Assembly: GCA_016930055.1 (NCBI GenBank)
Contig: JAFGHP010000091.1
Coordinates: 2,187-66,186 of the forward strand
DNA: 64,000 nt
DNA from: Candidatus Bathyarchaeota archaeon
GTDB lineage: Archaea > Thermoproteota > Bathyarchaeia > TCS64
Direction of reading: 5' to 3'
A program made the translations under genes and the position numbers. How positions within the stretch are numbered: position 1 is the first letter of the stretch; every line of letters starts with the position of its first letter. Below, one piece after another: positions 5,547-28,777 of the stretch. The notes under the pieces were generated by a model that was not told where the DNA came from, made no database searches, and worked only from the letters and a program-made list of their open reading frames with translations.

Positions 5547-5549
5547 GGG

Positions 5550-7429: not shown

Positions 7430-7658
7430 TCAGTTTCCTCCAAATATGATTTTAAAAGGGAAAGAGACCATAAAAACTTAGCTGAAGAAATATTTTACAA
7501 AAATAAAAGGGAAAAATTGTTGTAATACCATAAGACCAAGATAATATGTGACATTATTGTTCACTGTCCCTAATTGAGTTAAACTCGTTAAGATGGGATC
7601 GTTTTTTCCCTTGTATTGTCCCTAGAGAGTCAATGTAAACAGACGAAAAAAAGTAGCA

Positions 7659-9001: not shown

Positions 9002-11227
9002 ATGGCTATTGATCAATTCTACAAAGCTGAAAGGCTTTATAGAGGCATGCCAATGGTTCGAACTACTGATGGCTATCTTGTACCTTGGGATAAAAACAGA
9101 ATTATTGAACAACTTCAAAGAGAAACAGCATTAGCTAAAACAATGTTTGATATGGAGCCTTTAAACGGGCTTAAAGCTGAAAAGGTAGCTAACGCTGTTG
9201 AGAAGCGTATCAGATTAATTAAACCAAAATATGTCTCTGGTCCTATGATTAGAGAAATTGTTAACAATGTTTTACTCGATTGGAGTGAACAGGAGGGTAT
9301 GCCTGAATTACAAATATATCGTAATATTCTTACTCGTGTTGGTGTACCCGTGCCTGATGCGTACGAAATTGACACAGGTACAGGATTTGAATCAAAAGAA
9401 AACGCTAACCTCCAACCTAATCCAGAGACGGTTCATAAGAAGAAAGCAGACAGGTTAAGCAAAGAACAATATCTCCTCTTAATGGATCCCACATTAGCTA
9501 CAGCACACCATCAAGGAGATATTCATATTCATACACTCGAATATTTTGGGTCCAGACCTTTTTGCCAAGATTGGGATCTCCGATATTTCCTTTATTATGG
9601 TTTGATACCTGATGGGTCAGGATTCCGTAGTAGTGTTGCAGGCCCAGCAAAACAACCCGAAGTAGCTATTTTACATAGTGTAAAAGTGCTTGCTGCAGGA
9701 CAAACAAACTTCAGTGGAGGCCAAGGGTTCATGTACTATACAATGTTCTTGGCACCCTTTTTAAGAGGTCTTCCGTATGAAAGGGTAAAACAACTTGCTC
9801 AAATGATGTTTTATGAACTTACTCAAACTTATGTTACTCGTGGAGGCCAATTAGTTTTTAGTAACATCCAACTTCCAATGGGAGTGCCAAAAATATGGCA
9901 AAATGTTCCAGTAGTAATGAAAGGTCGTGTTGGACCCGATACTTATGGAAGTTATGAAGATGAAGTTCAGACATTTTTCAGAGCAATAACAGAGGTTTCT
10001 TTGGAAGGTGATTTCTGGGGTAAACCCTTCAACTTCCCTAAAAACGAAAATTATGTTTCACCTGAATTCTTTAAACCAGAATATGATGACCTTTGGATGC
10101 TGGTTCATAAAAGTGTAGGTAAATTTGGTGCCCCCTATTTTGATAACATGCTTCCAACATATCGTGGTTATGGTAATGGAATAAGTTGCTACCAATGTTG
10201 CGCATATCAATTCGCTAACACACCACAAACTGATCCTAAATTTCATGAAAAATTGTATTTTGAGGAGGGGCAACATTTCAGCATGGGAGGATGGCAAGTA
10301 GTTTCAATTAACATGCCTCGTCTCGCATACCGAGCTAATGGTGATTATGATAAATTATTAGAAGCAGCTCAAGAAAATATGAGATTAGCCGTAGAAGTCT
10401 TTAAAGCAAAACAAAATTGGATGCATAAAGCAATCGATAATAAAATGGTTCCTTTTGCCACTCAAACTCCGCGTGACCCAGTAACAGGTAAACTTGCTCC
10501 ACCTGCTGTTGATTTCAGTGAGCTTGTAAGTGTAATAGGAGTTGTTGGTATAAATGAAATGTTACAACATTTCACTGGAAAAGAATTACATGAAAGTGAC
10601 GACTCAGTTCGAGTAGCTATTAAGCTGCTTCTAGATATGGAAAAATACCGAAAAGGACTTGAAATGAGAAATGGCTTCAAAATTATGTTAGCTAGAACTC
10701 CTGCAGAAAGTACTGCTCAAACTTTTGCTATCAGCGATTTAGTTTCACCACAATACAAAAAATATGCACAGAAAGTAGTAAAAGGTGATGTTGAAGGTAG
10801 TTTAGCTTTAGTGAAGGGAAAAAGAGATTTACCTGTATATTATAGCAATGGAACACATACATATGTAGGTGCAAAAATTTCTCTTGGCAAAAAATTGGAT
10901 ATTGAACACAAATTCTTCCCTATTTTAAGTGGAGGAAATATTTTCCATGCTTGGCTTGGAGAATCATGCAGTGACCCAGAAGCACTTTATAAATTAACAC
11001 AAAGGATTTGCAGAAATACCCAAATAGGTTACTTTAGCTATACTAAAGATCTTACAGTTTGTAGTAAATGTCAGTCTACAAACACAGGCTTACTACAAAA
11101 TTGTCCCACATGCGGATCAGACAGTGTTAAATGGTGGAGTCGAATTACTGGTTATTATACTGATGTTACGGGTTGGAATGAAGGAAAACGTCAAGAATTA
11201 ATGGATCGTTATAGAGTAACAATATAA
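9002..11227 (+). CDS. nrdD: Anaerobic ribonucleoside-triphosphate reductase, class III.
   Basis: The C-terminal glycyl-radical motif is SRITGYY. A Zn ribbon CSKCQ...CPTCGS and a CCAYQF segment are present. I prefer the ATG at 9002 over the TTG at 8963 chosen by the ORF tool. Confidence 0.9.
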   Translation: MAIDQFYKAERLYRGMPMVRTTDGYLVPWDKNRIIEQLQRETALAKTMFDMEPLNGLKAEKVANAVEKRIRLIKPKYVSGPMIREIVNNVLLDWSEQEGMPELQIYRNILTRVGVPVPDAYEIDTGTGFESKENANLQPNPETVHKKKADRLSKEQYLLLMDPTLATAHHQGDIHIHTLEYFGSRPFCQDWDLRYFLYYGLIPDGSGFRSSVAGPAKQPEVAILHSVKVLAAGQTNFSGGQGFMYYTMFLAPFLRGLPYERVKQLAQMMFYELTQTYVTRGGQLVFSNIQLPMGVPKIWQNVPVVMKGRVGPDTYGSYEDEVQTFFRAITEVSLEGDFWGKPFNFPKNENYVSPEFFKPEYDDLWMLVHKSVGKFGAPYFDNMLPTYRGYGNGISCYQCCAYQFANTPQTDPKFHEKLYFEEGQHFSMGGWQVVSINMPRLAYRANGDYDKLLEAAQENMRLAVEVFKAKQNWMHKAIDNKMVPFATQTPRDPVTGKLAPPAVDFSELVSVIGVVGINEMLQHFTGKELHESDDSVRVAIKLLLDMEKYRKGLEMRNGFKIMLARTPAESTAQTFAISDLVSPQYKKYAQKVVKGDVEGSLALVKGKRDLPVYYSNGTHTYVGAKISLGKKLDIEHKFFPILSGGNIFHAWLGESCSDPEALYKLTQRICRNTQIGYFSYTKDLTVCSKCQSTNTGLLQNCPTCGSDSVKWWSRITGYYTDVTGWNEGKRQELMDRYRVTI

Positions 11228-11280
11228 CTACATACACAACTTTTACTAACCAATAATAACATTTCATTTTATCGATTGAA

Positions 11281-12411
11281 TTGTTATATGCGGGTTTTAA
11301 TGTACAAGATCTACCTACACCAGTACTTCTTCTTGACTTGGAAAAATTTAATTGGAATATAGAGAAAATGTTTGCTTTCTCAAAAAAAGTTGGTGTAAAC
11401 ATACGTCCTCATGCTAAAACGTTCAAATCAGCTGCTATTTGTAACCGGCTCATAGAAGCAGGGGCAATTGGGATTATGACACAAAAGTTGAGTGAAGCAG
11501 ATGTATTATTGAACAGTGGAATACTTTATGGAAATAAGAATATATTAATTAGTCAAGAACTTACAGACCCTAGCAAAATAGAATGTTTAGTTGGATATAA
11601 TGTTGCTATGGAAGAGGGAAAAGTATTAACAAGTCTCGATGATTTACGTGAAGCTGAAATTATTAATAAAATAGCTGAACGTTGGGGTACAAAGCAGCAT
11701 GTTATTATAGAAATGAGTCATGGACGTTGTGGAACACCACCAGGACAACCAACAGTTGATTTAGCTAAGAAGATCCAAAAAATGCCTAGTCTCGTTTTTA
11801 GAGGTATTTATGGTTATGAAAATCCTGTAAAACAAGAAGTAGCATTACAAAGGAATAAACAAACAGTAGATACAGCTAATATGATACGTGAAGCAGGTAT
11901 TCCCGTAGAAATAGTAAGTGCTGGAAGTACAGCAACATATGAAGTTACTGGAACATACCCAGGGATAACCGAAATTGAACCGGGAAGCTTCGTTTTTGGG
12001 GTTGGCCCAGAAGGCTCAGGATACGGATGGAAGGCAGAAAATAACGTCTACTTCAAAAATAGTTTAAGTGTTCTTACTTCGATTATTAGCACCACTCATG
12101 AAGATAGAGTAGTAACTGACGCTGGTTCAAAAGTTTTTGGTGCACCAAACACAGGTGTGGTTCCTCCAGTTTTAGCTTACATGAATAACGAAAGAATAGG
12201 CTTTGAAAGAGCAGGATTCAGTGAAGAACACTGTACATTACAATTTAAGGAAGGTAGTGAAGAACGTAAAAAACTTCATTGGGGACAAAAAATTTCTTTA
12301 ACACCAAACCATTGCTGTACTACAGTTAACCAACACGAAAAAATATTTGTAATAAAAAACAACAAAGTAGTCACAGTGTGGCCAATCACTGCTCGCGGAA
12401 TGTATCTATAA
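11281..12411 (+). CDS. PLP-dependent enzyme of the D-serine dehydratase-like / D-threonine aldolase family, with an alanine-racemase-type domain.
   Basis: RPHAKTFK is the PLP-Lys motif. There is no in-frame ATG, so I take the TTG start. Confidence 0.7.
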   Translation: MLYAGFNVQDLPTPVLLLDLEKFNWNIEKMFAFSKKVGVNIRPHAKTFKSAAICNRLIEAGAIGIMTQKLSEADVLLNSGILYGNKNILISQELTDPSKIECLVGYNVAMEEGKVLTSLDDLREAEIINKIAERWGTKQHVIIEMSHGRCGTPPGQPTVDLAKKIQKMPSLVFRGIYGYENPVKQEVALQRNKQTVDTANMIREAGIPVEIVSAGSTATYEVTGTYPGITEIEPGSFVFGVGPEGSGYGWKAENNVYFKNSLSVLTSIISTTHEDRVVTDAGSKVFGAPNTGVVPPVLAYMNNERIGFERAGFSEEHCTLQFKEGSEERKKLHWGQKISLTPNHCCTTVNQHEKIFVIKNNKVVTVWPITARGMYL

Positions 12412-12878: not shown

Positions 12879-13457
12879 ATGCAACTCTCAGGCAAATATA
12901 TTTTCAAATATTTAATCACTTTATTTGCCACAACATATTTTTTTTATATTATCCCCAGTAGCTGGATTGAACAATTGACAGCGGGGTCTTCGGTTTTTTT
13001 ATTACGCTTTTTTAATTTTAATTCTAATTGGTTATTTGAAGAGGGTATTACTTATTTAACATTAGAGGGACAACGTATGGTTTCCGTTATAATTATTCGT
13101 GAATGCACAGCACTAAATGTAATAGGAATAATGATTGGTTTAATTTTACCTTTAAAAGTTGGTTTATATCAAAAAACTAAGGGTATGGTTTTTTCAGTAG
13201 TAACATTATTTTTATTAAATATTCCTAGAATCGTCTTAACTTTATATTTGACAGCTTATGATGTTGCTCCTTTTACCTTATTAGACAATCGCAATCTTGA
13301 AACGTTTCATTATCCGATTAGCTTTCTATTTGGTGTAATAGGCGTAATCTTTGTTACACTATCGTTAAATCGATGGATTATTCCCGAACTTGGTGAAACT
13401 TTGATTGATTTTGTGAATTATTTTCAGATAAAATTATGTAATTATAACACTTCATAG
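12879..13457 (+). CDS. Exosortase/archaeosortase-family membrane protein, short form.
   Basis: Polytopic TM protein. IIIRECTALNVIG resembles the sortase Cys box, and Arg and Asn positions are present. Confidence 0.5.
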   Translation: MQLSGKYIFKYLITLFATTYFFYIIPSSWIEQLTAGSSVFLLRFFNFNSNWLFEEGITYLTLEGQRMVSVIIIRECTALNVIGIMIGLILPLKVGLYQKTKGMVFSVVTLFLLNIPRIVLTLYLTAYDVAPFTLLDNRNLETFHYPISFLFGVIGVIFVTLSLNRWIIPELGETLIDFVNYFQIKLCNYNTS

Positions 13458-14701: not shown

Positions 14702-14855
14702 AAAGTATCATTTTAGTTTTACCTATTAGATATAAAAATGTTCAGACAAAAAGAAGCAAAATAATAAAGAATATCTGAAAAACCCATTTAAACAAATGGT
14801 TTTAATCAAGTTTTTCGTAAGGTTAACATGCTTAATTAATAATAATAAAATAGTG

Positions 14856-15458
14856 ATGAGTATGTTTCAGAGAATAACAACATATTTTGAAGAAGGCGGA
14901 AATGAAAATACAGAGGAAACAATTAATGCAACTATTAAGGCATTAAAAGAATTAGAGATTAAGAAAGTTGTAGTAGCAAGTACAAGTGGTGATTCTGGTG
15001 TTAAAGTCGCTGAATCTTTAAAAAATTTTGATATAAAAGTAATAGTGGTTGGTCATCAATATGGTTTCACAACCCCTCCTCAGAAATTCAAAACTGAAAA
15101 TTTAAAACGTTTAAAAGAATTGGGGGCTGAAGTATATCTTGGTTCAGATGTCTTAACTAATAGTATAAGACAAAGAGAACGTCTTGGTCATAGTAGCTTG
15201 AGTATAATAACTCAAATTTTATCTACTTTAAAATTAAAAGTTAACATTGAAATAGTATTAAAAGCAACTGACGCAGGTCTATTATCTCCTGGTGAAAGAT
15301 GCGTTAGTTTAGCTGGAAGCCATTCTGGTTTAGATACTTCAGTAGTTTTTGATGCAAACCAAACAGCAAACATACTAGAAATTAAAATGAGAGAAATCAT
15401 TGCTATACCTATTACTAGAGAAAAAGCGAATGCAACATATATGCAAAACAGAAAATAA
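14856..15458 (+). CDS. Conserved hypothetical protein, possibly pyruvate-kinase C-terminal alpha/beta-domain-like.
   Basis: ORF only. The tool's start at 14796 adds a hydrophobic leader, and the internal Met at about 14856 is the more likely start. Confidence 0.4.
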   Translation: MSMFQRITTYFEEGGNENTEETINATIKALKELEIKKVVVASTSGDSGVKVAESLKNFDIKVIVVGHQYGFTTPPQKFKTENLKRLKELGAEVYLGSDVLTNSIRQRERLGHSSLSIITQILSTLKLKVNIEIVLKATDAGLLSPGERCVSLAGSHSGLDTSVVFDANQTANILEIKMREIIAIPITREKANATYMQNRK

Positions 15459-16011: not shown

Positions 16012-16305
16012 AAAATTTATTAATATTAAATATTTTTTAAAATGTGTTAAAATATGAGATGATTAATCCGCTCTTTAATTAAACCTATTTCACAAAGATA
16101 TAGGGGATATAGTCCAATAATGGGTAGTTTTTTAAATGATTTGAACAAAATAGAAGAATACTTATAACAAAGAAATATTTCTGAAGCAAAGGTCTCAACT
16201 TCTAATCTCTAAAATTTATTGAATCAATATAGAGAACATATATTTGATTTATTAAACAAATTCGATAAAATAAAATAGAAATAGATGAATTGATATAAAA
16301 TTTTT

Positions 16306-16608
16306 TTATCTTCTCTGCATGCCATTAGCAATCATTAACAAAGCTATAACAATTAGGAACAATGGCCATAACTTATCCCATGATAACCACGGATATACAT
16401 CACCTAATAAGGAAGCGACTCCAATTAATAAAATGAATACACCAATAATTATTGTCCAAGTAGTACCTGATCTTCCACCGAAACAAACATCATTTTGATC
16501 ATATCTCCTTGTTTGACGATAAGATTGTGGAGTTAATGAGGCTCCACAGTTACTACAATTTAATGCATCATCAGGATTTTCTTTTCCACATTTTGTACAG
16601 TATACCAT
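16306..16608 (-). CDS. Zinc-ribbon membrane protein.
   Basis: N-terminal CTKCG...CSNCG ribbon followed by two TM helices. It is the last gene of the rSAM operon. Confidence 0.5.
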   Translation of the reverse strand: MVYCTKCGKENPDDALNCSNCGASLTPQSYRQTRRYDQNDVCFGGRSGTTWTIIIGVFILLIGVASLLGDVYPWLSWDKLWPLFLIVIALLMIANGMQRR

Positions 16609-16657
16609 TTCGTATCATATGGTATGAATTAACATCTCTTATGAAAAGATTACTACT

Positions 16658-17317
16658 TTAATCATCTTTAATAAAAGACTCTGCACATTTTAAACCACAA
16701 TTGGTACATATTTTTATATGTTCTTCATTAGAAAGGATTATTCTTGTTAATATAAGAAAAACGGTTAAAGCTAGAAAATAAGCTTCAACAAATACATTGC
16801 TTAATAAAACTTCAGTACCTAATAACGTTAGAAAAGCACCGATCACAAAACCAACATTCAAGAAAAAATGTAAAAAAGGATTATCGCTATCGATTTGATA
16901 TTGAAGTAGGCCAAACAATATTAAAAAAGAACCTAATAAAGGGTATATAAATCCAGACTCTATGTTGAATTTTTTTATTATTAAAAACAAACTTAAAATT
17001 ATTGAAATTGTTCCACCAGTTGCTAAACCTAAACAACCAGCACAATATTTTTTCCCAATAATTTTTATGGTATGCGAAAAAAAATATTGACAGTTTGGAT
17101 GATGACCTGAGTAATTTATATTACTTCTAATAATAACTCCTTTCGACAAAGAAGGATAAAATGCTAAAATAGTTCCAATCATGCAAATTAAGATAAAAAT
17201 AATCCAAATTATTTGTCTTTCAAATAATGGACTAACTAAATATTTGTTATTAAACAACATTATCCAAAGAAGTAGTAATCCAGATATTGAGATAGCTAAC
17301 GATTGTTTTCCTCTCAA
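16658..17317 (-). CDS. DUF2085-like polytopic membrane protein with conserved Cys/His motifs.
   Basis: HHPNCQYFFSH and CAGCLGLATGG are conserved. There is a C-terminal CTNCGLKC box. Confidence 0.5.
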   Translation of the reverse strand: MRGKQSLAISISGLLLLWIMLFNNKYLVSPLFERQIIWIIFILICMIGTILAFYPSLSKGVIIRSNINYSGHHPNCQYFFSHTIKIIGKKYCAGCLGLATGGTISIILSLFLIIKKFNIESGFIYPLLGSFLILFGLLQYQIDSDNPFLHFFLNVGFVIGAFLTLLGTEVLLSNVFVEAYFLALTVFLILTRIILSNEEHIKICTNCGLKCAESFIKDD

Positions 17318-17318
17318 A

Positions 17319-17888
17319 TTACTTCATCTTCAAGATTTTTTCTTTAATTAGTCTAGTAAAATTAGGTACAATAAATGGTGTCTGGTGTTTATAGATTCTA
17401 TATTCTTCACCAAAACGAACTTCAAGATGGGGTTCTTCTCGTAACTTTACTATTAATATGTTTAACATAACTATTGTTAATGGAATAATAATTGACATTG
17501 TTAATGATTGAAACATGATTCCCATACCACACGGCAGCATTGAATAACCTAAAATCATTGGATTACGAGTATAAGCATAAAGGCCTGTAGTCACTAACTT
17601 TTTTGATTGAGAATTACTCTGCAACTCTCCCCAAGGTAGCCCATAACCTAAGTTATACAATAAACGTGTTGATTTAAGTCCAATAAATAACCCTGAAAAA
17701 AAAATTAATGTACCAAATATTAAATTATAAGGAAAATTCGGAAATTTTGGTAATCTAAATAATTCATCTAAAAAAGAACCTAATGAAAAAGTGATTATTG
17801 GAGCAAAAACAAATATTAAAAGATAAAGAATTAGCGTACTTTTTTTAATTTTAGGTAATTCCATAGAATTTATACGCATATTCTTCAA
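17319..17888 (-). CDS. Isoprenylcysteine carboxyl / phospholipid methyltransferase-family (ICMT/PEMT) membrane methyltransferase.
   Basis: LVTTGLYAYTRNPMILG...EEPHLEVRFGEEYRIYKHQTP is the ICMT signature. Confidence 0.7.
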   Translation of the reverse strand: MKNMRINSMELPKIKKSTLILYLLIFVFAPIITFSLGSFLDELFRLPKFPNFPYNLIFGTLIFFSGLFIGLKSTRLLYNLGYGLPWGELQSNSQSKKLVTTGLYAYTRNPMILGYSMLPCGMGIMFQSLTMSIIIPLTIVMLNILIVKLREEPHLEVRFGEEYRIYKHQTPFIVPNFTRLIKEKILKMK

Positions 17889-17889
17889 C

Positions 17890-19332
17890 CTAGAATAAAT
17901 TCTGTAATCTTGTGATAATAGCTTGTTTAGCTAAGTATTGATAAGTACGACGTACATATAAGTTATCAGATGTAATTCCTCGGTATCTTCTTGACCAATT
18001 TCCGAAAAAATCATTATAACAGCGATGTAATTCCTCTTGAACTTCATTTCGAGAAAGTGTTTCTGTAGGCATTATAGCATGTATCATATCATAGTTTGCC
18101 CAATTTTTATCTTCAATCCAATTATTTTGTTTTGCTTTTTCAAATATTTCTGTGCCAGGATAGGGGGTTAGAACCATAAAAGTAGCTAAATCAGGATCTA
18201 ACCAATCAGCATAATCTCTTAAAATTTGTATTGATTCTTTTGTATCTTTTCTATTTCCGATTATAAAAGTTCCTTGACTAAATATACCATTTTTTCTAAG
18301 TAATTCAACGGTTTCTTTTGCTACGGATTTATTAATACCAGTTCTTCTAAACGCTTTTAAAATATCAGTATCAGAAGTATCAAAACCTAATAACATCCAT
18401 ACATTACCAGATTTTCTTATTTTAGGTAACAATTCAGAGTTTTTAATTATATCATCGCACCTAGCTTGGCAGAACCATGATATTTCTAATCCTCTTTCAA
18501 GAATTAAATCACAAATTTTACTTGTTCTTTTATCTAAAGTAAAGTAATCGTCAGTAAACCAAAAAAATTTGCTACCAAACTGGGTATATATCTTTTCAAT
18601 TTCGTCAACAATCCTTTCAGGTGATTTTTGTCTATGGGTCTGTTTCCAAAAAGGTGATTGAGTACAGTAAGTACAATTATAACTGCATCCTCTTGATCCC
18701 TCAATTATTGCAAATGGTACACTTTTATCAGCCATTAAAGAGAAATAATATCCATTCATATGTTTTTTAACAAAATGGTAACCAGGATAAGGTAAAGAGT
18801 TAAGATCAGGTATTAATGGTCTGTCAGGTGTACTAATAATTTCATTATTTAATCTATAAGTGATTCCTAAAACATCCTTTTTTTCTTTACCGTTTTTAAT
18901 CATTTCAATAACTTCTTTTAAGGTCTCTTCTCCTTCACCACGAATAATATAATCAATTTCAGGATATGTTTCAAGACTTTCTTCAGGCAAAGCAGAGAAA
19001 TGTTGTCCACCTACAATTGTGATTATTTTGGGATCAATTTTTTTTGCTATCTGTGCTACTCTAGCTGATAAATAGACATTACATGTTGAAAGCCCACTTG
19101 GAGCAATAACATCTGGTTTCTCTGATTTTATTTTATTTTCTAAATCAGTCCAATTAAAGCCTTCAGCTTGGCTATCAATAACTTTGATATCGACATCATT
19201 ACATTTTTCTTCTAAATATGCAGCTAAAGTTAAAATTCCAAAAGGGGGAGGAATATATTGACCCATAACAAACCAAAAATCCTTTGGTGGTTCAATGAAA
19301 AGGACTCTCAATATTTTACACCTAATATACAT
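17890..19332 (-). CDS. B12-binding-domain radical SAM protein, class B.
   Basis: An N-terminal cobalamin-binding Rossmann domain is followed by the EGSRGCSYNCTYC CxxxCxxC motif. Confidence 0.85.
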   Translation of the reverse strand: MYIRCKILRVLFIEPPKDFWFVMGQYIPPPFGILTLAAYLEEKCNDVDIKVIDSQAEGFNWTDLENKIKSEKPDVIAPSGLSTCNVYLSARVAQIAKKIDPKIITIVGGQHFSALPEESLETYPEIDYIIRGEGEETLKEVIEMIKNGKEKKDVLGITYRLNNEIISTPDRPLIPDLNSLPYPGYHFVKKHMNGYYFSLMADKSVPFAIIEGSRGCSYNCTYCTQSPFWKQTHRQKSPERIVDEIEKIYTQFGSKFFWFTDDYFTLDKRTSKICDLILERGLEISWFCQARCDDIIKNSELLPKIRKSGNVWMLLGFDTSDTDILKAFRRTGINKSVAKETVELLRKNGIFSQGTFIIGNRKDTKESIQILRDYADWLDPDLATFMVLTPYPGTEIFEKAKQNNWIEDKNWANYDMIHAIMPTETLSRNEVQEELHRCYNDFFGNWSRRYRGITSDNLYVRRTYQYLAKQAIITRLQNLF

Positions 19333-19380
19333 TAATCAAGATATTTTCACACAATAAATGTTTCCAGATAACCTAAGTAG

Positions 19381-20253
19381 TTAATTGTAAATAATTTCAC
19401 CATTTTTCGAAATAGTAGCTTTTGCATACCTTAGAGCCCAACAACTAATAACAACACCAACTGGTAAACTAGCAGGGTGTCTAGCAGTAAACTCAACATG
19501 TAAATCCAAAACAGTTGGACCTTCACCTAAACCCATCGCACCAATCTCAAGTTGATTCAATTTTGTTAAAAGTTCCTCCTCTATGGCAGCTATATTTGAA
19601 TTACTATTTCTTTTTTTGAATGGTTTTAATAATGCTTTTTTTGCTAGTAACATACAAAGATCTTCACTACCACCAACACCGACACCAACAAAATATGGGG
19701 GACATCCTAAAGAACCTGCATCTGCAACTGCTTCTATAATAAATTTTTTCACACCAACAATGCCTAAACCAGGTTTAATCATTTTATGCACAGATACATT
19801 ACTACTTCCTCCCCCTTTAGGCATAACAATAATCTCTAATTTATCTCCGGATACTAGCTCTAAATAAATTATGGGAATATTTCCATCTTCACTAGTATTA
19901 TCACCCGTATTACCTTTGAATATGTCTACAGAGTTCGGTCGAAGAGGAATTTTTTCAGTCGCTCTTCTTGTAGCTGTTCTAAGGATTTTTTTAAGGTTAG
20001 AACGAATCGGAAAATCGTCGCCTAAAGTTATAATATATGATATTACACCAGTATCTTGGCAAATAGGGCATTCAGATTTTTTTGCTAGTTCGGAATTTGT
20101 TATCATACTTCTTAATTGTGCTTGACCAACTGCTCCATTTGTTGTAGTCAATATTTTTTTTAATTCTTCTAAGAATTCCGTAGGTAGTTCAGTAACTGAT
20201 TTTTTTAATAATTCAACAGCCGTATCTTCAACTATTTTTTCAAGGTTAATCAT
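19381..20253 (-). CDS. fumA: Class I (Fe-S) fumarate hydratase / tartrate dehydratase, alpha subunit.
   Basis: The ECPICQDTG cluster motif is present, and the length and surrounding pattern fit the FumA N-terminal domain. Confidence 0.8.
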   Translation of the reverse strand: MINLEKIVEDTAVELLKKSVTELPTEFLEELKKILTTTNGAVGQAQLRSMITNSELAKKSECPICQDTGVISYIITLGDDFPIRSNLKKILRTATRRATEKIPLRPNSVDIFKGNTGDNTSEDGNIPIIYLELVSGDKLEIIVMPKGGGSSNVSVHKMIKPGLGIVGVKKFIIEAVADAGSLGCPPYFVGVGVGGSEDLCMLLAKKALLKPFKKRNSNSNIAAIEEELLTKLNQLEIGAMGLGEGPTVLDLHVEFTARHPASLPVGVVISCWALRYAKATISKNGEIIYN

Positions 20254-20846
20254 TTCATTTCACTGATCAGTTTTTCTTTTTTATTGTTTACATTACTCAG
20301 AATTTTTGCAGTAAGATTAGAACCATGTGAATCTATGGTGACAATCATTGGTCCAAAGTTTTCCACTTCATATACCCATAAACATTCAGGCATCCCCAAT
20401 TCGTCCAACCAATAATAATTTTTAACTTTTTTTATTCCCTGAGCTGCTAATAATGCGGCACCACCTGTAAAAGAACCATAAATACAACCAAATTTTCGAC
20501 ACGCATTAACTGTACGTTCACCCATACCGCCTTTCCCTATAAGTACTGAAGGACGATAATATTCAATAAAAAGATCTTCAAACATCTCCATTCTATCACT
20601 AGTTGTTGGACCAGCAGCTACAACTTTCCATTCATTTTCTGTTTTCTTCATTATTGGTCCACAATGAAAAATTGCTAATCCTTTAAATTCGATTGGTGAC
20701 CTATTTCCTGATTCGTATAGTTCAATTGCTTTTTTATGAGCTTCATCACGAGCCGTTACAATTGTTCCAGAAATAAAAAAAACATCACCAATTTCGAGTT
20801 TCCTTACTTCAAATTCAGGTATAGGAGTCATTAAATGATATTCCAT
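20250..20846 (-). CDS. fumB: Class I fumarate hydratase, beta subunit.
   Basis: GTIVTARDEAHKK...IFHCGP fits the beta subunit. It overlaps fumA by 4 nt, suggesting translational coupling. Confidence 0.8.
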   Translation of the reverse strand: MEYHLMTPIPEFEVRKLEIGDVFFISGTIVTARDEAHKKAIELYESGNRSPIEFKGLAIFHCGPIMKKTENEWKVVAAGPTTSDRMEMFEDLFIEYYRPSVLIGKGGMGERTVNACRKFGCIYGSFTGGAALLAAQGIKKVKNYYWLDELGMPECLWVYEVENFGPMIVTIDSHGSNLTAKILSNVNNKKEKLISEMK

Positions 20847-21081: not shown

Positions 21082-21501
21082 ATGTCTTCTGAAAACTCGG
21101 GGCAAATCCTTAAAATAAATGCGGAAAATAAAGAATTTAAAGAAAAAATTCAAGATTTAAGCGGAGAAAAAATTGACCTATGTTTCCAGTGTGGAGCATG
21201 TAGTTCAGGATGTCCAATGGTACAAGAGATGGATTATTTACCATCAAAAATTATTAGAATGTCTCAATTAGGTTTAAAAGAAGTTTTATCAAGTAAAACT
21301 ATTTGGGTCTGTACAACTTGCTTTAATTGTGAAGTTAGATGCCCAAGAGGAATAGACATAGCAAATGTAATGGAAGCTATTCGTCAGGTGGTTTTAAGAC
21401 AAAAGTTTGACAAAGTTAACATCGATATGCTTACACCAGAGGAACTTAGAGAACTCCCCCAAATTGCTATAGTCAGTAATCTTAGGAAACTTACAGCGTG
21501 A
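21082..21501 (+). CDS. HdrC-like 4Fe-4S dicluster protein.
   Basis: CFQCGACSSGCP and CTTCFNCEVRCP are the two cluster motifs. Confidence 0.75.
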   Translation: MSSENSGQILKINAENKEFKEKIQDLSGEKIDLCFQCGACSSGCPMVQEMDYLPSKIIRMSQLGLKEVLSSKTIWVCTTCFNCEVRCPRGIDIANVMEAIRQVVLRQKFDKVNIDMLTPEELRELPQIAIVSNLRKLTA

Positions 21502-21507
21502 TGTACT

Positions 21508-22410
21508 ATGAGGTTAGCATATTATCCAGGATGTACACTTAAAACAACTGCAAAAAGTTTTGATATCTCAACATTAGAAAGCTCTAAAACATTAGGTATT
21601 GATCTGATTGAACCTGAGAGGTGGAATTGCTGTGGAACAGTTCATGCCCTCTCTAAAGATGATGTTATGCACCATTTGGCACCAATCCGTAATTTACTCA
21701 GGATAGAAGAAATGAAAAAGACAGGTATTGTTGAAGAGAGTAAAGTAATAACTGTTTGTGCAATGTGTTACAATACCCTGAAAAGAGCTAATCTAGTTTT
21801 TAATTCTGATTCCGATAAAGTAAAAAAAATTAATGAAAACATGGAAAACGAATCTTCAGTTTATAACGGATCTGTACAAGTGGAGCATTTATTGGAAACA
21901 ATAAAACATCAAGGATGGGATAACCTTAGAAATAAGGTCAAAATTCCATTAAAAGATCTTAAAGTTGCACCATATTATGGATGCTTATTATTAAGACCAA
22001 GAGGTCTAGGCATAGATAATGCCGATAAACCATCAATAATGGAAGATATGATAAGAGCATTGGGTGCTGAACCCATAGACTTTGCTTATAAACAAAAATG
22101 TTGTGGAAGTTATCATACAGTATTTATGAAAGAAAGGGTAGCTGATTTAAGTTATAAAATATTAAATCAAGCAAAAATTGCTGGCGCAGAAATAATAGTT
22201 ACTGCTTGTCCTCTATGTGAATTTAATTTAAGTCATCGGCAAACAGAAATTATTAAAAATAGAAGTGAGTTTAAAGAATTCCCAGTTATATACTTCACCC
22301 AATTAATAGCTTTAGCATTAGGGCTAAAAGAGGATTCAATGGTTTTTGGGGAAAATAAAACTGACCCAAGACCTCTCTTCAAGTATAAGGGTTTTTTAAA
22401 GGAGATATAA
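21508..22410 (+). CDS. HdrB-like protein with two CCG domains; an SdhE/TfrB-type subunit.
   Basis: The two Cys-rich repeats are YYPGC...CCGT...CAMC and YYGC...CCGS...CPLCEF. Confidence 0.8.
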   Translation: MRLAYYPGCTLKTTAKSFDISTLESSKTLGIDLIEPERWNCCGTVHALSKDDVMHHLAPIRNLLRIEEMKKTGIVEESKVITVCAMCYNTLKRANLVFNSDSDKVKKINENMENESSVYNGSVQVEHLLETIKHQGWDNLRNKVKIPLKDLKVAPYYGCLLLRPRGLGIDNADKPSIMEDMIRALGAEPIDFAYKQKCCGSYHTVFMKERVADLSYKILNQAKIAGAEIIVTACPLCEFNLSHRQTEIIKNRSEFKEFPVIYFTQLIALALGLKEDSMVFGENKTDPRPLFKYKGFLKEI

Positions 22411-22412
22411 AA

Positions 22413-23102
22413 ATGTCAAAAAACAACAACGATTTTGTTACCATCTATGTAATGGGAAAAAAACAGAAAGTTCCAGCAGACCTCACAATAATGAAAGCAA
22501 TGGAATATGCAGGTCATCAATTTATTAGAGGATCAGGTTGTAGAGGAGGCTTCTGTGGAGCATGTGCAACAGTATATAGAATGAGGGGAAGTTACAAACT
22601 TCAAGGAGCCCTAGCTTGTCAGAAACAAGTTGAAGAGGGAATGATTATTGCTCAGATTCCTTTTAGTCCATCTGAAAAAATTACTTATAAATTAAATGAA
22701 ATTAAAGCAAATGCAAATACTTTCCTAGAATATTTCCCTGAAATTGCTCGATGTTTGTCATGCAATACTTGTACAAAAGCATGTCCTCAAGATATTATGG
22801 TAATGGATTATGTACAAGCAGCTCTTCGAGGCGACATCAAATTAGCTGCAAAGTTAAGTTTTGATTGTTTAGGATGTGGCTTATGTGCAATGAGGTGCCC
22901 TGCAGAGATTGTGCCTTATAATATTGGGCAATTAGCTAGAAGACTTGAATCAAAATATATTGAAGGACCAACAGAGCAAGTGCTTTCAAGATGTGAAGAA
23001 ATTAAAGAAGGAAAATATGACAAAGAAATTGAATCTCTCAAAAATGCTGACAAAGAGACTTTAATTAAACTCTATAATTCAAGGGAGATGAAAAATGAAT
23101 GA
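22413..23102 (+). CDS. frdB: Succinate dehydrogenase / fumarate reductase iron-sulfur subunit.
   Basis: The 2Fe-2S box is CRGGFCGACA. The 4Fe-4S boxes are CLSCNTCTKACP and CLGCGLCAMRCP. Confidence 0.85.
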   Translation: MSKNNNDFVTIYVMGKKQKVPADLTIMKAMEYAGHQFIRGSGCRGGFCGACATVYRMRGSYKLQGALACQKQVEEGMIIAQIPFSPSEKITYKLNEIKANANTFLEYFPEIARCLSCNTCTKACPQDIMVMDYVQAALRGDIKLAAKLSFDCLGCGLCAMRCPAEIVPYNIGQLARRLESKYIEGPTEQVLSRCEEIKEGKYDKEIESLKNADKETLIKLYNSREMKNE

Positions 23103-24751
23103 GTGATTTTAAAAGTGGTTATCCTGAATATATGCAAGAAAGCCTAAAAAAAGTATCAGAAACAAGATCTAGTAGATTTGGTAAAGAATTTACTCCAATG
23201 ACTGCAGAACAACGTATACAAATACTAGAAAAATTTCATCCAGATTGGAAACCTCAAATGAAACGAGGTTTAAAAATTGGGCCAAGTAAGGGTATGTTGA
23301 TACCTCATGAGGTAGCTGACATTATTGAATCTCATTCAATGATAAAACATGATGAAATTGATCTAACTAAAATCGATTATGATTTAGATGTTTTAATTAT
23401 TGGGGGAGGAGGGGCAGGTCTAAGTGCTGGCATATTAGCAAAAGAGTCAGGTATACCAGCTGATAAAATTCTACTTGTTCAAAAACTGAGACTAGGGGAC
23501 GCAAACAGTAAAATGGCTCAAGGCGGAATTCAAGCTGCAGACACCTCAATAGATAACCCTGCAATTCATTACCTTGATGTAATTGGGGGAGGACACTATG
23601 CAAATAAACCTGACCTTGTTGAAGCTTTAGTAAAAGACGCTCCGGATGTAATAAAATGGCATGAATCTCTAGGAGTTATGTATGATAAAAATCCTGATGG
23701 TACAATGTTAGAGATTGCGGGAGGAGGAACAAGCAGGAACAGAATGCACAGTTGCAAAGATTATACAGGGCTTGAACTCACTCGTGTGGTTCTTGATGAA
23801 TTTATTAATAAAGAAATAGGATACACAGAATTCACAAGTGCTGTAGAATTATTAATGGATGATAAAGAACAGGTTGCTGGAGCTGTATTATACGATTTAG
23901 AGACAAAAGAATATCATATCGCTAGATCAAAAAGCACAATTTTAGCTACAGGAGGTTTCGGTAGATTACACATCCAAGGATTTGCCACAACTAATCATTA
24001 TGGTGCAACTGGTGATGGTATAGTTATGGCGTATCGTACAGGCGCAATTTTAAGGGATTTGGATTCGACCCAATATCATCCTACAGGCGCAGCTTTTCCA
24101 GAACAAATTGTTGGACAACTAGCAACAGAAAAATTACGTGGTAGAGGAGCACAACCAGTTAACAAATATGGAGAACTTTTTGTATACCATTTAGAACCAA
24201 GAGACATCGAGTCAAGTAGCTATATTCGAGAATGTTATGAAAGAGATAACGGAATAGTTACTCCGACAGGAATGAAAGCAGTTTGGCTTGATACACCCAT
24301 GATAGAAAAAGTAAATGGATCTGGAACAATAGAAAGAGAGTTTGCTGCAATGTTCCGAAATTTTAACAGATGGGGAATAGATATTAGAAAAGAACCCATG
24401 CTTGTCTTTCCAACACTTCATTACCAGAACGGTGGAGTAGAAATAAACGCAAACACGGAAACAAATATTGCTGGGCTTCTTTGTGCGGGTGAAGTCTGCG
24501 GAGGAGTACATGGGAAAAACCGTTTAATGGGAAATAGTCAACTCGAAATCTATGTTTTTGGGCGTAGAGCGGGAAGAGCTGCTGCTAAAAGAGCTTCAAA
24601 AACCAATTTGGGTGAACTGAATCTTAACCATGTTAAAAGATATGATAAATGGCTTGAAGAAGCAGGTATAATTACTGAAAGAAAAAGTCCAATAATATTA
24701 CCTGAATATCGTGGCGAAAAAACACTGAGTCACCAGTTAAAAATTATGTAG
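23099..24751 (+). CDS. frdA: Fumarate reductase / succinate dehydrogenase flavoprotein subunit. It carries a roughly 95-aa N-terminal extension. The FAD site lacks the His that would link FAD covalently.
   Basis: VLIIGGGGAGLSAG is the FAD Rossmann motif. Ser-Lys-Met-AQGGI occupies the place of Ser-His-Thr. The active-site region HYLD...GGHY is present. The start overlaps frdB by ATGA. Confidence 0.85.
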   Translation: MSDFKSGYPEYMQESLKKVSETRSSRFGKEFTPMTAEQRIQILEKFHPDWKPQMKRGLKIGPSKGMLIPHEVADIIESHSMIKHDEIDLTKIDYDLDVLIIGGGGAGLSAGILAKESGIPADKILLVQKLRLGDANSKMAQGGIQAADTSIDNPAIHYLDVIGGGHYANKPDLVEALVKDAPDVIKWHESLGVMYDKNPDGTMLEIAGGGTSRNRMHSCKDYTGLELTRVVLDEFINKEIGYTEFTSAVELLMDDKEQVAGAVLYDLETKEYHIARSKSTILATGGFGRLHIQGFATTNHYGATGDGIVMAYRTGAILRDLDSTQYHPTGAAFPEQIVGQLATEKLRGRGAQPVNKYGELFVYHLEPRDIESSSYIRECYERDNGIVTPTGMKAVWLDTPMIEKVNGSGTIEREFAAMFRNFNRWGIDIRKEPMLVFPTLHYQNGGVEINANTETNIAGLLCAGEVCGGVHGKNRLMGNSQLEIYVFGRRAGRAAAKRASKTNLGELNLNHVKRYDKWLEEAGIITERKSPIILPEYRGEKTLSHQLKIM

Positions 24752-24759
24752 GGATTAAA

Positions 24760-27132
24760 ATGTCTTACAGCCCTAAAATCGGAGTTTGGTTATGTGAATG
24801 TGGCGGAAATATAGGTGATGTAGTAGACACTCAAAAAGTAATGGATGAGATAAAAAATCAAGTTCAATTTGTAAAACGTGAACGATACTTATGTAGTAAA
24901 CCAAGTATAGACACAATTAAAGAGATAATCAAAAACGAGAAACTAGAAAGAATAGTTTTAGCTTGTTGTACTCCAAAAATGCATAGAGAAACTTTTTTAA
25001 AAAATGTGATAGAAGAAGGAATAAACCCAGCGTTTCTCGAAATAGTAAATGTTCGTGAACAATGTAGCTGGGTTCATAAAAAAGATCCTGAAGGAGCTAC
25101 TTTGAAAAGTCTGGATCTTATAAAAGGAGCTATATCTCGAATTAAGGAATCAAAAGAGTTACACACAAAACAAATGCATGTCACACAAGAAGTACTAGTC
25201 ATTGGAGGAGGAGTTGCAGGTATTACAACTAGTCTAAGGTTAAGTGAATATGGGCTGAAAGTTCATTTAATTGAAAAAAGTCCAAGCATTGGGGGGCATA
25301 TGATCCAATACCCCAAAGTGTTCCCAACTCTAGACTGCAGTCAATGCATTTTGACACCAAAAATGGCTAGTATAGCTCAGAGCAGTAATATCAATCTCAA
25401 AACATATTCTGAAGTAAAAGAAGTTACCGGGTCACCGGGTAATTTTAATGTAAAAATTTGGGTTAAACCAAGAGGTGTAGATGTCGAAAAATGTATAGGA
25501 TGTGGGGAATGTAGTAGAGTCTGTCCTGTAGAAGCTCCTTCGGAATATGATGAAAGAATTGGAAAAAGGAAAGCAGCCTACATTCCTTTTCCTCAAAGCG
25601 TACCTAGCGTTTATACAATTGATTTTGATAATTGTGTCAGATGTGGTCTTTGTGCAGCGAATTGCCCTCGAGAAGCAATTGACCTCAATGATGAAGGGAA
25701 AATTGAGGAATTAAATGTTGGTGCAATAGTCTTAGCAACAGGTTTTGAATTATTTGATTTAACAAATTTAGTCAATTATGGTTATGGAAGATATCCTAAT
25801 GTAATTACTAGTCTAGAAATGGAACGTATACTAGATGTTAATGGCCCAACAGGAAGCCAGTTGATTGTTCCTAAGACAGGTAGACAAGTTAAAAGTGTTG
25901 TATATGTTTTATGTGCTGGAAGTAGGGACACAGAGGTTGGTCAACCATACTGTAGTAGAGTCTGTTGTCTTTACAGCATGAAGCAAGCTCAACTATTAAG
26001 AGATAGAGGAGTTGATGTCTGGATAAATTATATCGATATACGTTCTCCAGGACGAAGATACGAAGAATTTTATCGTTTAACGCAAGAAAAAGGTGTAAAT
26101 TTTGTTAAAGGAAAAGTAACAGAAATTGAACCAAATGGAGAACAAGTATTAGTAAGATCAGAGGAAATGATGTTAAATAAAATGATGGAAAATGTTGTTG
26201 ACTTAGTAGTTCTTTCACCACCAATCATTAGTTCAGAAGATACAGCTAAGCTATCTGAAATGCTTAAAGTACCAATAGATGAAGACAAGTTCGTTTTAGA
26301 AAAACATCCTAAACTTGATCCAGTGGCTACTAAAAGAGACGGTGTATTTGCAGCTGGTGCAGTTATTGGACCCAAAGACATTCAGTCAACAACTGCAGAA
26401 GCAGAAGGAGCTGCCATGAAAGTAGTTAATTTTCTAGGTATGGCAAGAATAATTGAAGCAAATAAGGCATATTTAGCTAGAAATGAACTATGCGATGGGT
26501 GTGGTAAATGTAAAAAAATATGCCCAGAATCAGCAATTACAATTGTTGAGGATAAACCGGTTTTTAATGAGATTACCTGTTCTGGTTGTGGGGCATGTAT
26601 ACCTGAATGCCCACAAAACGCTCTTGATCAAGAAGGTTTAACTGACATCCAAATTCAAACCCAAATTAAAGGCATATTAAATGATACGAAAGCACCACTA
26701 AAAATAATTGCATTTGTCGAAAAAGAAGTTGTTTACACTGCAATTGATTTAGCAGGACTAGCCAGATTAAGTTATGCTAGTAGTATAAGAATAATTCCTA
26801 TGCCTTCTTTAGCTAGAATCAAATTAGAGCATATACTCTATGCTTTTTCTTATGGTGCAGATGGTGTAATGATGTTAGAAGCTCCTATACATGAAGGCCC
26901 ATATGGGAATGCTCATAAAATTTCAGAGGAAAGAGCTGAAGAATATAAATGGGCTTTAGAAGATTATGAGATAGATAGTAGTAGATTATGGTATAGTAGA
27001 GTATATGTTCCTGATTGGAGAAAACTAGAACGAATTTTTAACACGTTTCATGAAATGGTAGAATCGGAAGACCCAATCGAAGGAAACCAAAGAGGAAAAA
27101 TACTAAAAAATTTATTAAAAATAAAAGATTAA
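24760..27132 (+). CDS. hdrA: Heterodisulfide reductase subunit A-like flavoprotein with a C-terminal cysteine-less MvhD-like domain.
   Basis: An N-terminal Cys domain (IGVWLCECGG) is followed by an FAD domain (VIGGGVAGITT). An inserted ferredoxin and a C-terminal ferredoxin (CDGCGKCKKICP, CSGCGACIPECP) are present. The tail aligns to MvhD with all Cys substituted. Confidence 0.85.
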   Translation: MSYSPKIGVWLCECGGNIGDVVDTQKVMDEIKNQVQFVKRERYLCSKPSIDTIKEIIKNEKLERIVLACCTPKMHRETFLKNVIEEGINPAFLEIVNVREQCSWVHKKDPEGATLKSLDLIKGAISRIKESKELHTKQMHVTQEVLVIGGGVAGITTSLRLSEYGLKVHLIEKSPSIGGHMIQYPKVFPTLDCSQCILTPKMASIAQSSNINLKTYSEVKEVTGSPGNFNVKIWVKPRGVDVEKCIGCGECSRVCPVEAPSEYDERIGKRKAAYIPFPQSVPSVYTIDFDNCVRCGLCAANCPREAIDLNDEGKIEELNVGAIVLATGFELFDLTNLVNYGYGRYPNVITSLEMERILDVNGPTGSQLIVPKTGRQVKSVVYVLCAGSRDTEVGQPYCSRVCCLYSMKQAQLLRDRGVDVWINYIDIRSPGRRYEEFYRLTQEKGVNFVKGKVTEIEPNGEQVLVRSEEMMLNKMMENVVDLVVLSPPIISSEDTAKLSEMLKVPIDEDKFVLEKHPKLDPVATKRDGVFAAGAVIGPKDIQSTTAEAEGAAMKVVNFLGMARIIEANKAYLARNELCDGCGKCKKICPESAITIVEDKPVFNEITCSGCGACIPECPQNALDQEGLTDIQIQTQIKGILNDTKAPLKIIAFVEKEVVYTAIDLAGLARLSYASSIRIIPMPSLARIKLEHILYAFSYGADGVMMLEAPIHEGPYGNAHKISEERAEEYKWALEDYEIDSSRLWYSRVYVPDWRKLERIFNTFHEMVESEDPIEGNQRGKILKNLLKIKD

Positions 27133-27204
27133 CGAAATAAAATTTTTTATTTAAAAATTAACCCCATAACAACTATTATATGTTCAAAAATTTTAGAGAA
27201 ATAC

Positions 27205-28542: not shown

Positions 28543-28777
28543 TAAGAGTTTATTCAGTTACTACAATATCAAATAAAAATATCATTAATTCAATAATTAG
28601 TCTCTAAGAATCTAAAACTAGATATACTACAATTTCACGGATAGTGTAAAATAAACTTGGAGAAGAAAAATTGATTCAAATAAAAACAAAATATGAGGTT
28701 AAAAGAAATACTAGAAAATTTTTAAACACTAAAAACAGTTTGGATTAATACAATAATATTAGCTATGAGGTCATCTA

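Follow-up and report, generated by a model that had tools for sequence, protein, structure and literature searches.

A conserved archaeal gene module of a B12-domain radical SAM enzyme and two Cys-rich membrane proteins, with a possible role in membrane lipid tailoring

What does a radical S-adenosylmethionine (SAM) enzyme with a B12-binding domain act upon when its gene stands in a row with genes for membrane proteins? The question is raised by four consecutive open reading frames (ORFs) on the minus strand of a 64,000-nucleotide stretch of contig JAFGHP010000091.1 from a Candidatus Bathyarchaeota archaeon (assembly GCA_016930055.1), the whole of which is called the window here. An initial annotation, made from the sequence alone, had described these genes as a four-gene membrane modification unit, and the ORF list places them exactly as described there, with intergenic gaps of 1, 1, and 49 nt. 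For brevity, the B12-domain radical SAM enzyme is called rSAM, the Cys/His-rich protein with six transmembrane (TM) helices CysTM, and the zinc ribbon protein with two TM helices ZnR. The four genes are as follows.

17890..19332, minus strand: rSAM, a soluble class B-type enzyme with B12-binding (PF02310) and radical SAM (PF04055) domains; ORF of 480 aa
17319..17888, minus strand: integral membrane methyltransferase of the ICMT/PEMT superfamily (PF04191); 189 aa
16658..17317, minus strand: CysTM, a protein with six TM helices (from hydropathy and an AlphaFold2 [AF2] model) and two Cys/His clusters, from a family that has no name; 219 aa
16306..16608, minus strand: ZnR, a zinc ribbon (PF13240) followed by a basic linker and two TM helices; 100 aa

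Conservation of the gene module

One genome per species was scanned with an alignment of rSAM orthologues, which identified relatives in at least 363 species-level genomes, and the best 80 of these were characterized by lineage. Most of the best 80 are Bathyarchaeia; the others belong to Thor-, Hermod-, and Promethearchaeota, Hadarchaeota, Methanomethylicota, non-ammonia-oxidizing Nitrososphaeria, and a few Methanobacterium. The hosts of the module are anaerobic lineages, namely Bathyarchaeia, Asgard archaea, Hadarchaeota, Methanomethylicota, and some Methanobacterium. The loci were translated in six frames and searched with profiles of the four proteins, with 63 dereplicated loci offering at least 2.3 kb of downstream sequence. 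CysTM directly follows rSAM on the same strand in 54 of these 63 genome loci, ZnR is adjacent to the module in 55 (39 convergent downstream, 12 downstream on the same strand, 3 upstream, and 1 both), and all three genes occur together in 52. As the CysTM family is rare, with 779 representatives among 1.84 billion proteins, and is nevertheless found behind rSAM in such a proportion of loci, the association is not accidental.

The reciprocal test started from CysTM. A metagenome scan for the motif GHHPxC, 15 residues, CAGC gave 119 verified CysTM loci. rSAM lies directly upstream of CysTM in 45 of the 57 metagenome loci with enough flanking sequence, and ZnR is adjacent to CysTM in 76 of 84, convergently in 68 of the 76. 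The co-occurrence analysis across genomes that the initial annotation had called for is thereby provided from both sides. All-against-all clustering of the remaining ORFs detected no other conserved neighbor in more than 10 loci, only local synteny among close relatives; two apparent exceptions proved to be antisense shadow ORFs inside the rSAM gene.

The constant core of the module is rSAM, CysTM, and ZnR, within which CysTM and ZnR form the tightest pair. In a small clade of Hermod- and Promethearchaeota, rSAM is found without any partner. The methyltransferase, which had been counted as part of the set, is confined to one rSAM clade and found at just 18 of 63 genome loci. That the module is a functional unit is supported by its synteny across phyla, by fusions of the methyltransferase with CysTM, and by the fact that all products but rSAM are integral membrane proteins. 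What was first described as a membrane-associated unit is thus real; its core is composed differently. No account of the module turned up in a search of the literature that combined the terms radical SAM, Bathyarchaeota, bchE, ICMT, and DUF2085.

Among cultured organisms, the complete core was located in three: Methanobacterium petrolearium, M. spitsbergense, and Methanobacterium sp. SMA-27. Two of these, M. spitsbergense and SMA-27, carry a gene for an ArsR-type regulator directly upstream of rSAM, with integrase or IS605 remnants nearby. This ArsR/HTH_5 gene is situated 21 nt upstream of rSAM in the cultured Methanobacterium, with LMWPc and DUF166 genes divergent from it. Integrase fragments or an IS605 OrfB lie nearby, and the coordinates noted for these features are 7612-7980 and 10819-11953 in locus L086 and 7611-7979 and 4667-5797 in locus L088; none of the other 85 loci has the regulator. 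The presence of both the regulator and the integrase or IS605 remnants suggests that the module in those two Methanobacterium is a regulated, mobile accessory cassette.

The component proteins

The rSAM protein carries a B12-binding domain (Pfam PF02310, 81.6 bits against a cut-off of 32.1, residues 26-141) and a radical SAM domain (PF04055, 75 bits). Its radical SAM box, C216-SYN-C220-TY-C223, has the CxxxCxxC form, and its three Cys residues are invariant across 26 orthologues, as are G108, G109, and H111 of the GGxH motif; the cobalamin-binding domain and CSYNCTYC box first noted in this gene are thus both confirmed. The true start is most likely the TTG at 19311, giving a protein of 473 aa that is identical to GenBank MBN1683590.1 ("cobalamin-dependent protein"), and the length of rSAM is accordingly given as 473-480 aa. 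Orthologues share 50-76% identity, also between phyla. The AF2 model has a predicted local distance difference test (pLDDT) score of 88.6, and Foldseek matches it about equally well to AprD4, TsrM, OxsB, MgmA, CysS, and TokK in the Protein Data Bank (PDB; TM score approximately 0.7, E 1e-19 to 1e-25), with AprD4 as the top match; by sequence, the PDB gives only distant matches. From domain matches and the modeled structure, rSAM is predicted to have a class B fold, with a B12 domain and a radical SAM core, and it may use cobalamin.

Classification of rSAM with hidden Markov models, as had been suggested, places it nearest to BchE, HpnJ, and HpnR, in each case under the cut-off. The best NCBIfam model is BchE (TIGR02026; 252.8 bits against 481.35, profile positions 1-429 of 497), followed by HpnJ (183.8 against 577.6) and HpnR (158.9 against 650), and then by ApyD (151), a P-methyltransferase family (138), a "lipid biosynthesis B12/rSAM" family (107), and TIGR03975 (94 bits). 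The score of rSAM is below every curated cut-off in NCBIfam, and no equivalog model exists there for its family. Many orthologues are labeled "anaerobic Mg-protoporphyrin cyclase" by JGI, which is a generic automatic name. An rSAM from a known non-lipid family among unconserved neighbors would have spoken against a lipid-related unit; what we find is 253 of the 481 bits for BchE and neighbors that are conserved.

By simple hydropathy, rSAM has no TM segment (maximum 19-residue hydropathy 1.10) and is soluble, whereas the methyltransferase has at least three hydrophobic helices, CysTM six, and ZnR two. The description of the last two genes as encoding Cys-rich membrane proteins is borne out by the six helices and many Cys/His residues of CysTM and by the zinc ribbon and two TM helices of ZnR.

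The two clusters of CysTM have the patterns GHHPxC-x5-H-x9-CxGC and H-x3-C-x2-C-x4-C. In an alignment of 35 sequences, the residues C45, G71, H72, H73, P74, C76, H82, C92, G94, and C95, as well as R192, S196, H200, C204, and C207, are invariant, and C212, H150, and N154 are nearly so. The window protein is identical to GenBank MBN1683588.1 ("hypothetical protein JW865_08570") and has no match in Pfam or NCBIfam. The proposed label "DUF2085-like" has to be withdrawn: 3 of 35 family members match DUF2085 (PF09858) below threshold, with a best E of 0.011, and the window CysTM does not match it at E ≤0.01. The AF2 model (pLDDT 86.5) has six long helices and a β-hairpin before helix 3, and Foldseek finds no matching fold in the PDB (best E 0.94). 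CysTM is best treated as a family of its own. Counting Lys and Arg residues in the loops of the model puts the N terminus, the Cys/His loop, and the C-terminal Cys cluster on the cytoplasmic side, so that, by the positive-inside rule, both clusters are predicted to be cytoplasmic. This placement agrees with the fusion of CysTM to the cytoplasmic C terminus of an ICMT-type domain.

ZnR matches Zn_Ribbon_1 (PF13240) at residues 3-25 with 33.9 bits (Pfam cut-off 25), and its CxxC...CxxC pairs are conserved in 67 orthologues. The linker ends in a CFG motif, usually (E/D)CFG, in 66 of the 67, and this motif is duplicated in 19. Matches of the TM region to LiaF/LiaI-like domains are below threshold (19.8 and 18.9 bits against 27). 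The positive-inside rule suggests that ribbon and ECFG motif face the cytoplasm. Tandem arrays of three to four ZnR-like paralogues (zinc ribbon and two TM helices) stand beside CysTM in loci L174 (5593-7429) and L096 (729-3451). Near the CysTM-ZnR pair of L096 lies a gene of the GH3 family (Pfam GH3; acyl-acid amido synthetase-like), and L202 and L205 have an unannotated ORF of approximately 380-410 aa in a similar position.

The methyltransferase matches PF04191 (PEMT) with 50.5 bits against a gathering cut-off of 25, with weaker Pfam matches to ICMT and DUF1295. Its translation contains the motif RNPMILG...EEPHLEVRFGEEYRIYKHQTP, as the initial annotation had pointed out in assigning it to this superfamily. 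Its alignment with an archaeal ICMT of solved structure (4A2N, E 2.4e-5) extends over the TM core and the C-terminal cofactor-binding region, spanning LVxxGxYxxxRxPM and EE..L...FGxEYxxY. The methyltransferase scores 34.6 bits, far under the cut-off of 160 for the isoprenylcysteine O-methyltransferase equivalog NF040696. In addition to the 18 genome loci, it is found in 11 of the 119 metagenome loci. In a neighbor-joining tree, the methyltransferase loci, including the window locus, form one monophyletic rSAM clade without exception (25 of 25). The methyltransferase is a clade-specific accessory to the rSAM/CysTM/ZnR core in one Bathyarchaeia clade.

At most of these loci, methyltransferase and CysTM are fused into a single protein of approximately 400-445 aa that matches PF04191; PEMT is the sole extra domain found in long CysTM proteins. 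In the 444-aa fusion of locus L001, the N-terminal half is 54% identical to the window methyltransferase and the C-terminal half 37% identical to the window CysTM, and the same arrangement occurs in L002 and in L006, the nearest relative of the window locus. The window junction at 17317-17319 reads TAA-T-TTG, with the two ORFs in different frames; the genes are also split in L011 (1991-3249) and fused in L006 (3455-4705). A sequencing frameshift was considered as the cause of the split and rejected: the fusion cannot be restored by changing any single base, and the GenBank annotation likewise has two genes, so that the gene fission appears to be real. With fusion in the nearest relative and a split in both the window and L011, it looks like a recent fission, within the clade, of an ancestral fusion.

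The methyltransferase stands alone after rSAM in four loci of the clade. L017, L024, and L027 lack both CysTM and ZnR, and L013, which is partly masked by Ns, has kept ZnR. Outside the clade, a non-orthologous ICMT-like gene with the canonical RHPQ(Y/A)LG motif is found beside rSAM in two Asgard loci, just upstream of rSAM in Hermod locus L058 and convergent downstream in Thor locus L044. An ICMT/PEMT-type enzyme has been recruited to the module more than once.

Two unrelated loci have Rce1-like genes (CAAX protease family) at a distance of 5-7 kb (L001, 16798-17428; L086, 14956-15456), and one of these genes is fused to a double zinc ribbon. Together with the ICMT-like enzyme they may be seen as a curious echo of eukaryotic CAAX processing, though not a systematic one.

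Candidate substrates of the module

We tentatively propose that the module encodes a membrane-docked radical SAM complex of a kind not described before, whose substrate would be a membrane lipid, with isoprenoid ether lipids as the likeliest candidates. In such a complex, CysTM and ZnR would form a membrane receptor with the Cys/His clusters, the zinc ribbon, and the ECFG motif on the cytoplasmic side. The receptor would dock rSAM at the cytoplasmic membrane face and present a membrane-embedded substrate, archaeol or a glycerol dialkyl glycerol tetraether (GDGT), near its glycerol or head group end. It is conceivable that the polar intrahelical residues H150, N154, R192, and S196 of CysTM hold the polar group of the substrate; as these conserved Arg, His, Asn, and Ser residues suit a phosphate or glycerol head group, the chemistry may be expected near the polar end of the lipid. 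There, rSAM could attack an unactivated carbon by radical chemistry, through cobalamin-dependent methylation or through another type of hydrogen abstraction, and in the PEMT clade the methyltransferase could place a second methyl group, on a heteroatom (O, N, or S), on the same substrate. The metal sites of the module could be structural (Zn) or serve as an electron relay (Fe-S).

We infer a lipid, as opposed to a protein, metal, or cofactor, as the substrate. It is judged the likeliest for three reasons: relatives in the ICMT/PEMT superfamily have lipids or lipid-like molecules as substrates, the models nearest to rSAM include lipid enzymes (HpnJ, HpnR, and the "lipid biosynthesis B12/rSAM" family), and lipid tailoring by B12-domain radical SAM enzymes is well precedented in the same archaeal groups. 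The characterized ICMT/PEMT relatives that were matched are the prenylcysteine, lipid A phosphate, and methanethiol methyltransferase models and structure 4A2N, all with lipid or lipid-like substrates. The proposal also draws support from the conservation of the three-gene unit as tested from both sides, without any other constant neighbor, from the PEMT-CysTM fusions as Rosetta-stone proteins, from the non-orthologous ICMT-like genes of L058 and L044, from the loci in which PEMT alone accompanies rSAM (L017, L024, and L027), and from the pairing of a soluble rSAM with three polytopic membrane proteins. The host range of anaerobic archaea fits as well, tetraether lipids being assumed in the uncultured lineages.

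Several observations weigh against a lipid-acting complex of this kind. The best curated model of rSAM is BchE, a tetrapyrrole enzyme and not a lipid enzyme. AprD4, the top structural match of rSAM, has a B12-like domain but is not known to use cobalamin, so that rSAM may not use B12 either. About 20% of CysTM-ZnR pairs lack an adjacent rSAM, so that the pair may have a role of its own, and membrane proteins rich in Cys and His would fit metal handling as well. None of Tes, Grs, geranylgeranyl reductase (GGR), or prenyltransferases is a conserved neighbor of the module, and the known archaeal lipid B12-domain radical SAM enzymes are not reported to need membrane partner genes (PMC11214058; bioRxiv 10.1101/2025.10.20.683597).

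A bolder and distinctly less probable version of the lipid proposal is that the module is a multisubunit, membrane-integrated radical SAM machine of a new kind, composed of a soluble B12-domain radical SAM enzyme, a metal-binding 6-TM receptor, and a zinc ribbon anchor, that makes an orphan lipid modification of archaea in anoxic sediments. It could be speculated that its products arise by C-methylation of the glycerol backbone, leading to butanetriol or pentanetriol tetraethers, or by novel head group chemistry, and that in one Bathyarchaeia clade they receive another methyl group from the ICMT-like subunit. Butanetriol tetraethers (BDGTs) have been attributed to Methanomassiliicoccus and to a genus of Bathyarchaeia. 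Methanomassiliicoccus is not among the rSAM matches listed, and no literature link between Baizosediminiarchaeum and radical SAM genes was found. As the range of the module is much wider than that of the known BDGT producers, BDGT formation is only one candidate.

Among the alternatives to a lipid, a protein substrate appears rather unlikely. Here, rSAM would modify its own membrane partner posttranslationally, for instance by methylating or cross-linking the (E/D)CFG Cys of ZnR or a Cys or His residue of CysTM, and the module would be a maturation system for membrane proteins in which the ICMT-like enzyme methylates the modified residue. Such a role could be read from the conservation of ECFG in 66 of 67 ZnR sequences and its duplication in 19, from ZnR being the most constant neighbor of CysTM (76 of 84), and from the tandem ZnR paralogues in some loci. 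B12-domain radical SAM methylases of peptides and proteins do exist, rSAM matches ApyD (151 bits) and the RiPP (ribosomally synthesized and posttranslationally modified peptide) C-methyltransferase TIGR03975 (94 bits), and the MCR glutamine methylase MgmA (9CCB) is among its structural matches. However, ZnR is mostly encoded on the opposite strand (68 of 76), unlike typical precursor genes, and CysTM-ZnR pairs exist without an adjacent rSAM. Moreover, ZnR is hard to fit as the substrate because PEMT alone replaces CysTM and ZnR beside rSAM in L017, L024, and L027. A role in metal or metalloid handling, in which CysTM and ZnR would bind a soft metal or metalloid that the cobalamin enzyme, with or without the methyltransferase, alkylates, is suggested by analogy with mercury methylation by HgcAB or with arsenic methylation and seems improbable. 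The ten or more conserved Cys and His residues of CysTM and the four ribbon Cys plus the CFG Cys of ZnR would suit it, as would weak matches of rSAM to P-methyltransferase and arsinothricin radical SAM models and sporadic ArsR/HTH_5, CutA1, CDF, ZIP, and ABC-3 permease neighbors. Against this, class B enzymes in general give such cross-matches, the conserved neighbors do not include ars or mer genes, and the metal-related genes are few among 97 loci (ArsR in 3 related loci, CutA1 in 5, and CDF, ZIP, and ABC-3 in 1 each); with these genes so sporadic, metal homeostasis was rejected as a general feature of the module.

We regard cofactor tailoring with equal reserve. The cofactor would be a hydrophobic tetrapyrrole or of the quinone type, rSAM would act on it much as BchE does, and the methyltransferase, as a carboxyl methyltransferase, would take the role of BchM. 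In chlorophyll biosynthesis, methyl esterification by BchM is followed by radical cyclization by BchE, an order that might be seen as parallel to the pairing of PEMT with rSAM, and BchE is indeed the best curated model, matched nearly over its full length (253 bits, positions 1-429 of 497). The score is nonetheless about half the trusted cut-off of BchE, the cyclase label of JGI is a generic automatic name, no genes of tetrapyrrole or quinone biosynthesis are conserved nearby, and PEMT is absent from most modules. The least probable explanation by far, and one that can be taken as refuted, is that the genes have no functional link and that their adjacency is accidental or merely inherited synteny. 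The fumarate hydratase genes upstream on the same strand are a reminder that tight spacing alone proves nothing, but at least six phylum-level groups of archaea have retained the unit amid neighbors that otherwise all change, and the PEMT-CysTM fusions and the reciprocal test from the side of CysTM likewise speak for a link.

If the membrane lipid proposal is true, it would describe a new architecture in archaeal lipid biosynthesis, a radical SAM enzyme with obligate membrane subunits, and would tie genes to an orphan lipid. In the bolder version, rSAM would be the first archaeal lipid radical SAM enzyme to need dedicated membrane partners, and a lipid biomarker of sediments would acquire its gene marker. 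Few organisms of anoxic sediments are as abundant as Bathyarchaeia and Asgard archaea, whose membrane lipids serve as geochemical biomarkers; several modifications of these lipids are still without genes. As the core is present in three cultured Methanobacterium, the lipid idea is testable at the bench. Should the substrate not be a lipid, the metal-binding membrane proteins would still make up a large family, linked to radical chemistry, that calls for an explanation. Lipid tailoring by B12-domain radical SAM enzymes is already known; what is new are the CysTM and ZnR families, for which no name, solved fold, or literature was found.

Genomic surroundings and relation to known systems

Two further features flank the module in the window.

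16262..16305, minus strand: T-rich tract after the ZnR stop codon (TAA, then aaaaattttatatcaattcatctatttctattttattttatcg), read from the sequence
19333..19380, minus strand: spacer between the fumarate hydratase alpha subunit gene and rSAM, with an A/T-rich TTTATT element

Oligo-T tracts act as terminators in archaea, and the T-rich tract is the probable end of the transcription unit. The TTTATT element, and a GGTG located 8 nt before the TTG start at 19311, are a possible promoter and ribosome-binding site belonging to the module itself. The genes for the alpha and beta subunits of a class I fumarate hydratase (19381-20846, minus strand) lie 48 nt upstream of rSAM on the same strand. They are neighbors of the module in no other locus compared, for which reason a functional link through cotranscription was rejected.

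Other surroundings are concerned with energy metabolism. A block of Cys-rich, flavoprotein, and Fe-S ORFs (21082-27132, from the ORF list) is followed by a malic enzyme gene (27205-28542), and a 999-aa FAD/Fe-S oxidoreductase and the large subunit of a NiFe hydrogenase are encoded within 21082-31777 (plus strand) and 34529-35986 (plus strand). None of these genes is conserved with the module in other loci. The archaeosortase-like gene at 12879, set down at the outset as nearby and separate, likewise accompanies the module in no other locus; it encodes an archaeosortase-family protein (12879-13457, plus strand) that matches an exosortase/archaeosortase signature model with 33.8 bits against a cut-off of 23, with heimdallarchaeosortase as its best named model (41.7 bits against 130). 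A 220-aa protein (14796-15458, plus strand) is without an NCBIfam family and matches the PALP domain and the C-terminal domain of pyruvate kinase only weakly. Farther away, an 1858-aa protein (45520-51096, minus strand) combines DUF4011, Upf1-like helicase domains (AAA_11/AAA_12), and an MTES_1575 restriction endonuclease-like domain; it lies, within 44000-52000, in a low-GC island (GC 0.25-0.29 against approximately 0.33 elsewhere), which may be a defense or mobile island. The RNA polymerase subunit A is unsplit, with all five Rpb1 domains in a single 1286-aa ORF (58508-62368, minus strand) and not in separate A' and A'' subunits, and the adjacent ORF (62369-63946, minus strand) carries only the C-terminal Rpb2 domains 5-7.

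Comparison with known systems places rSAM among familiar enzymes and sets its partners apart. The tailoring of archaeal lipids relies on radical SAM enzymes, such as Tes, GrsA/B, Gms, and the B12-domain enzyme Gmm (PMC11214058), and B12-domain lipid enzymes, namely Grs, Gmm, Ted, and GDGT methylases, are common in Bathyarchaeota (PMC11214058; bioRxiv 10.1101/2025.10.20.683597). Like rSAM, the latter combine B12 binding with a radical SAM core and are soluble or peripheral proteins acting at the membrane, and, as with the module, they are strongly represented in Bathyarchaeota, with some in Asgard archaea and Methanobacteriota. They are, however, reported to be active when expressed alone, whereas rSAM has two fixed membrane partners that are not mentioned for those enzymes. 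The reported neighbors of lipid B12-domain radical SAM genes are grs, gms, or a gene for an AttH hydratase that overlaps them (attH/hgs); here, in contrast, the 3' neighbor is CysTM or PEMT-CysTM. No second B12-domain radical SAM gene is found within approximately 6 kb in 85 loci. Ted homologues were collected at a length of at least 500 aa, compared with 473-480 aa for rSAM. Both gene context and length differ from those described for Ted, and by context rSAM is not Ted; its family may belong to the uncharacterized "Gmm2" section of the Gmm tree, where Bathyarchaeota and Methanomada are likewise numerous.

BchE (TIGR02026) shares the two-domain architecture of rSAM and aligns with it over nearly the full length, but the last approximately 70 positions of its profile (430-497 of 497) are unmatched, the hosts of rSAM are nonphototrophic anaerobic archaea, and no bacteriochlorophyll genes are among the conserved neighbors. 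HpnJ, in cyclitol ether formation, and HpnR, a C-3 methylase, are B12-domain radical SAM enzymes like rSAM that both act on membrane lipids; the scores of rSAM are far under their cut-offs, its genomes are archaeal, and no hopanoid genes are conserved beside it. The ICMT of Methanosarcina acetivorans (4A2N) resembles the window methyltransferase in its TM core and C-terminal cofactor-binding region and differs in having RHPxY where the latter has RNPM. The fusion with CysTM that is usual for the methyltransferase of the module is not described for ICMT/PEMT enzymes. DUF2085 proteins resemble CysTM in being polytopic and in having a helix that begins with a CxxC-type motif, but no CysTM member matches them significantly (best E 0.011). 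Mercury methylation by HgcAB brings together a corrinoid-dependent alkylating enzyme, a Cys-rich partner, and a membrane domain; HgcA does not belong to the radical SAM enzymes, and HgcAB, likened here by description, may serve as a conceptual analogue only. Set beside these systems, the module may be classed as a B12-domain radical SAM tailoring enzyme with obligate, previously unnamed membrane partners.

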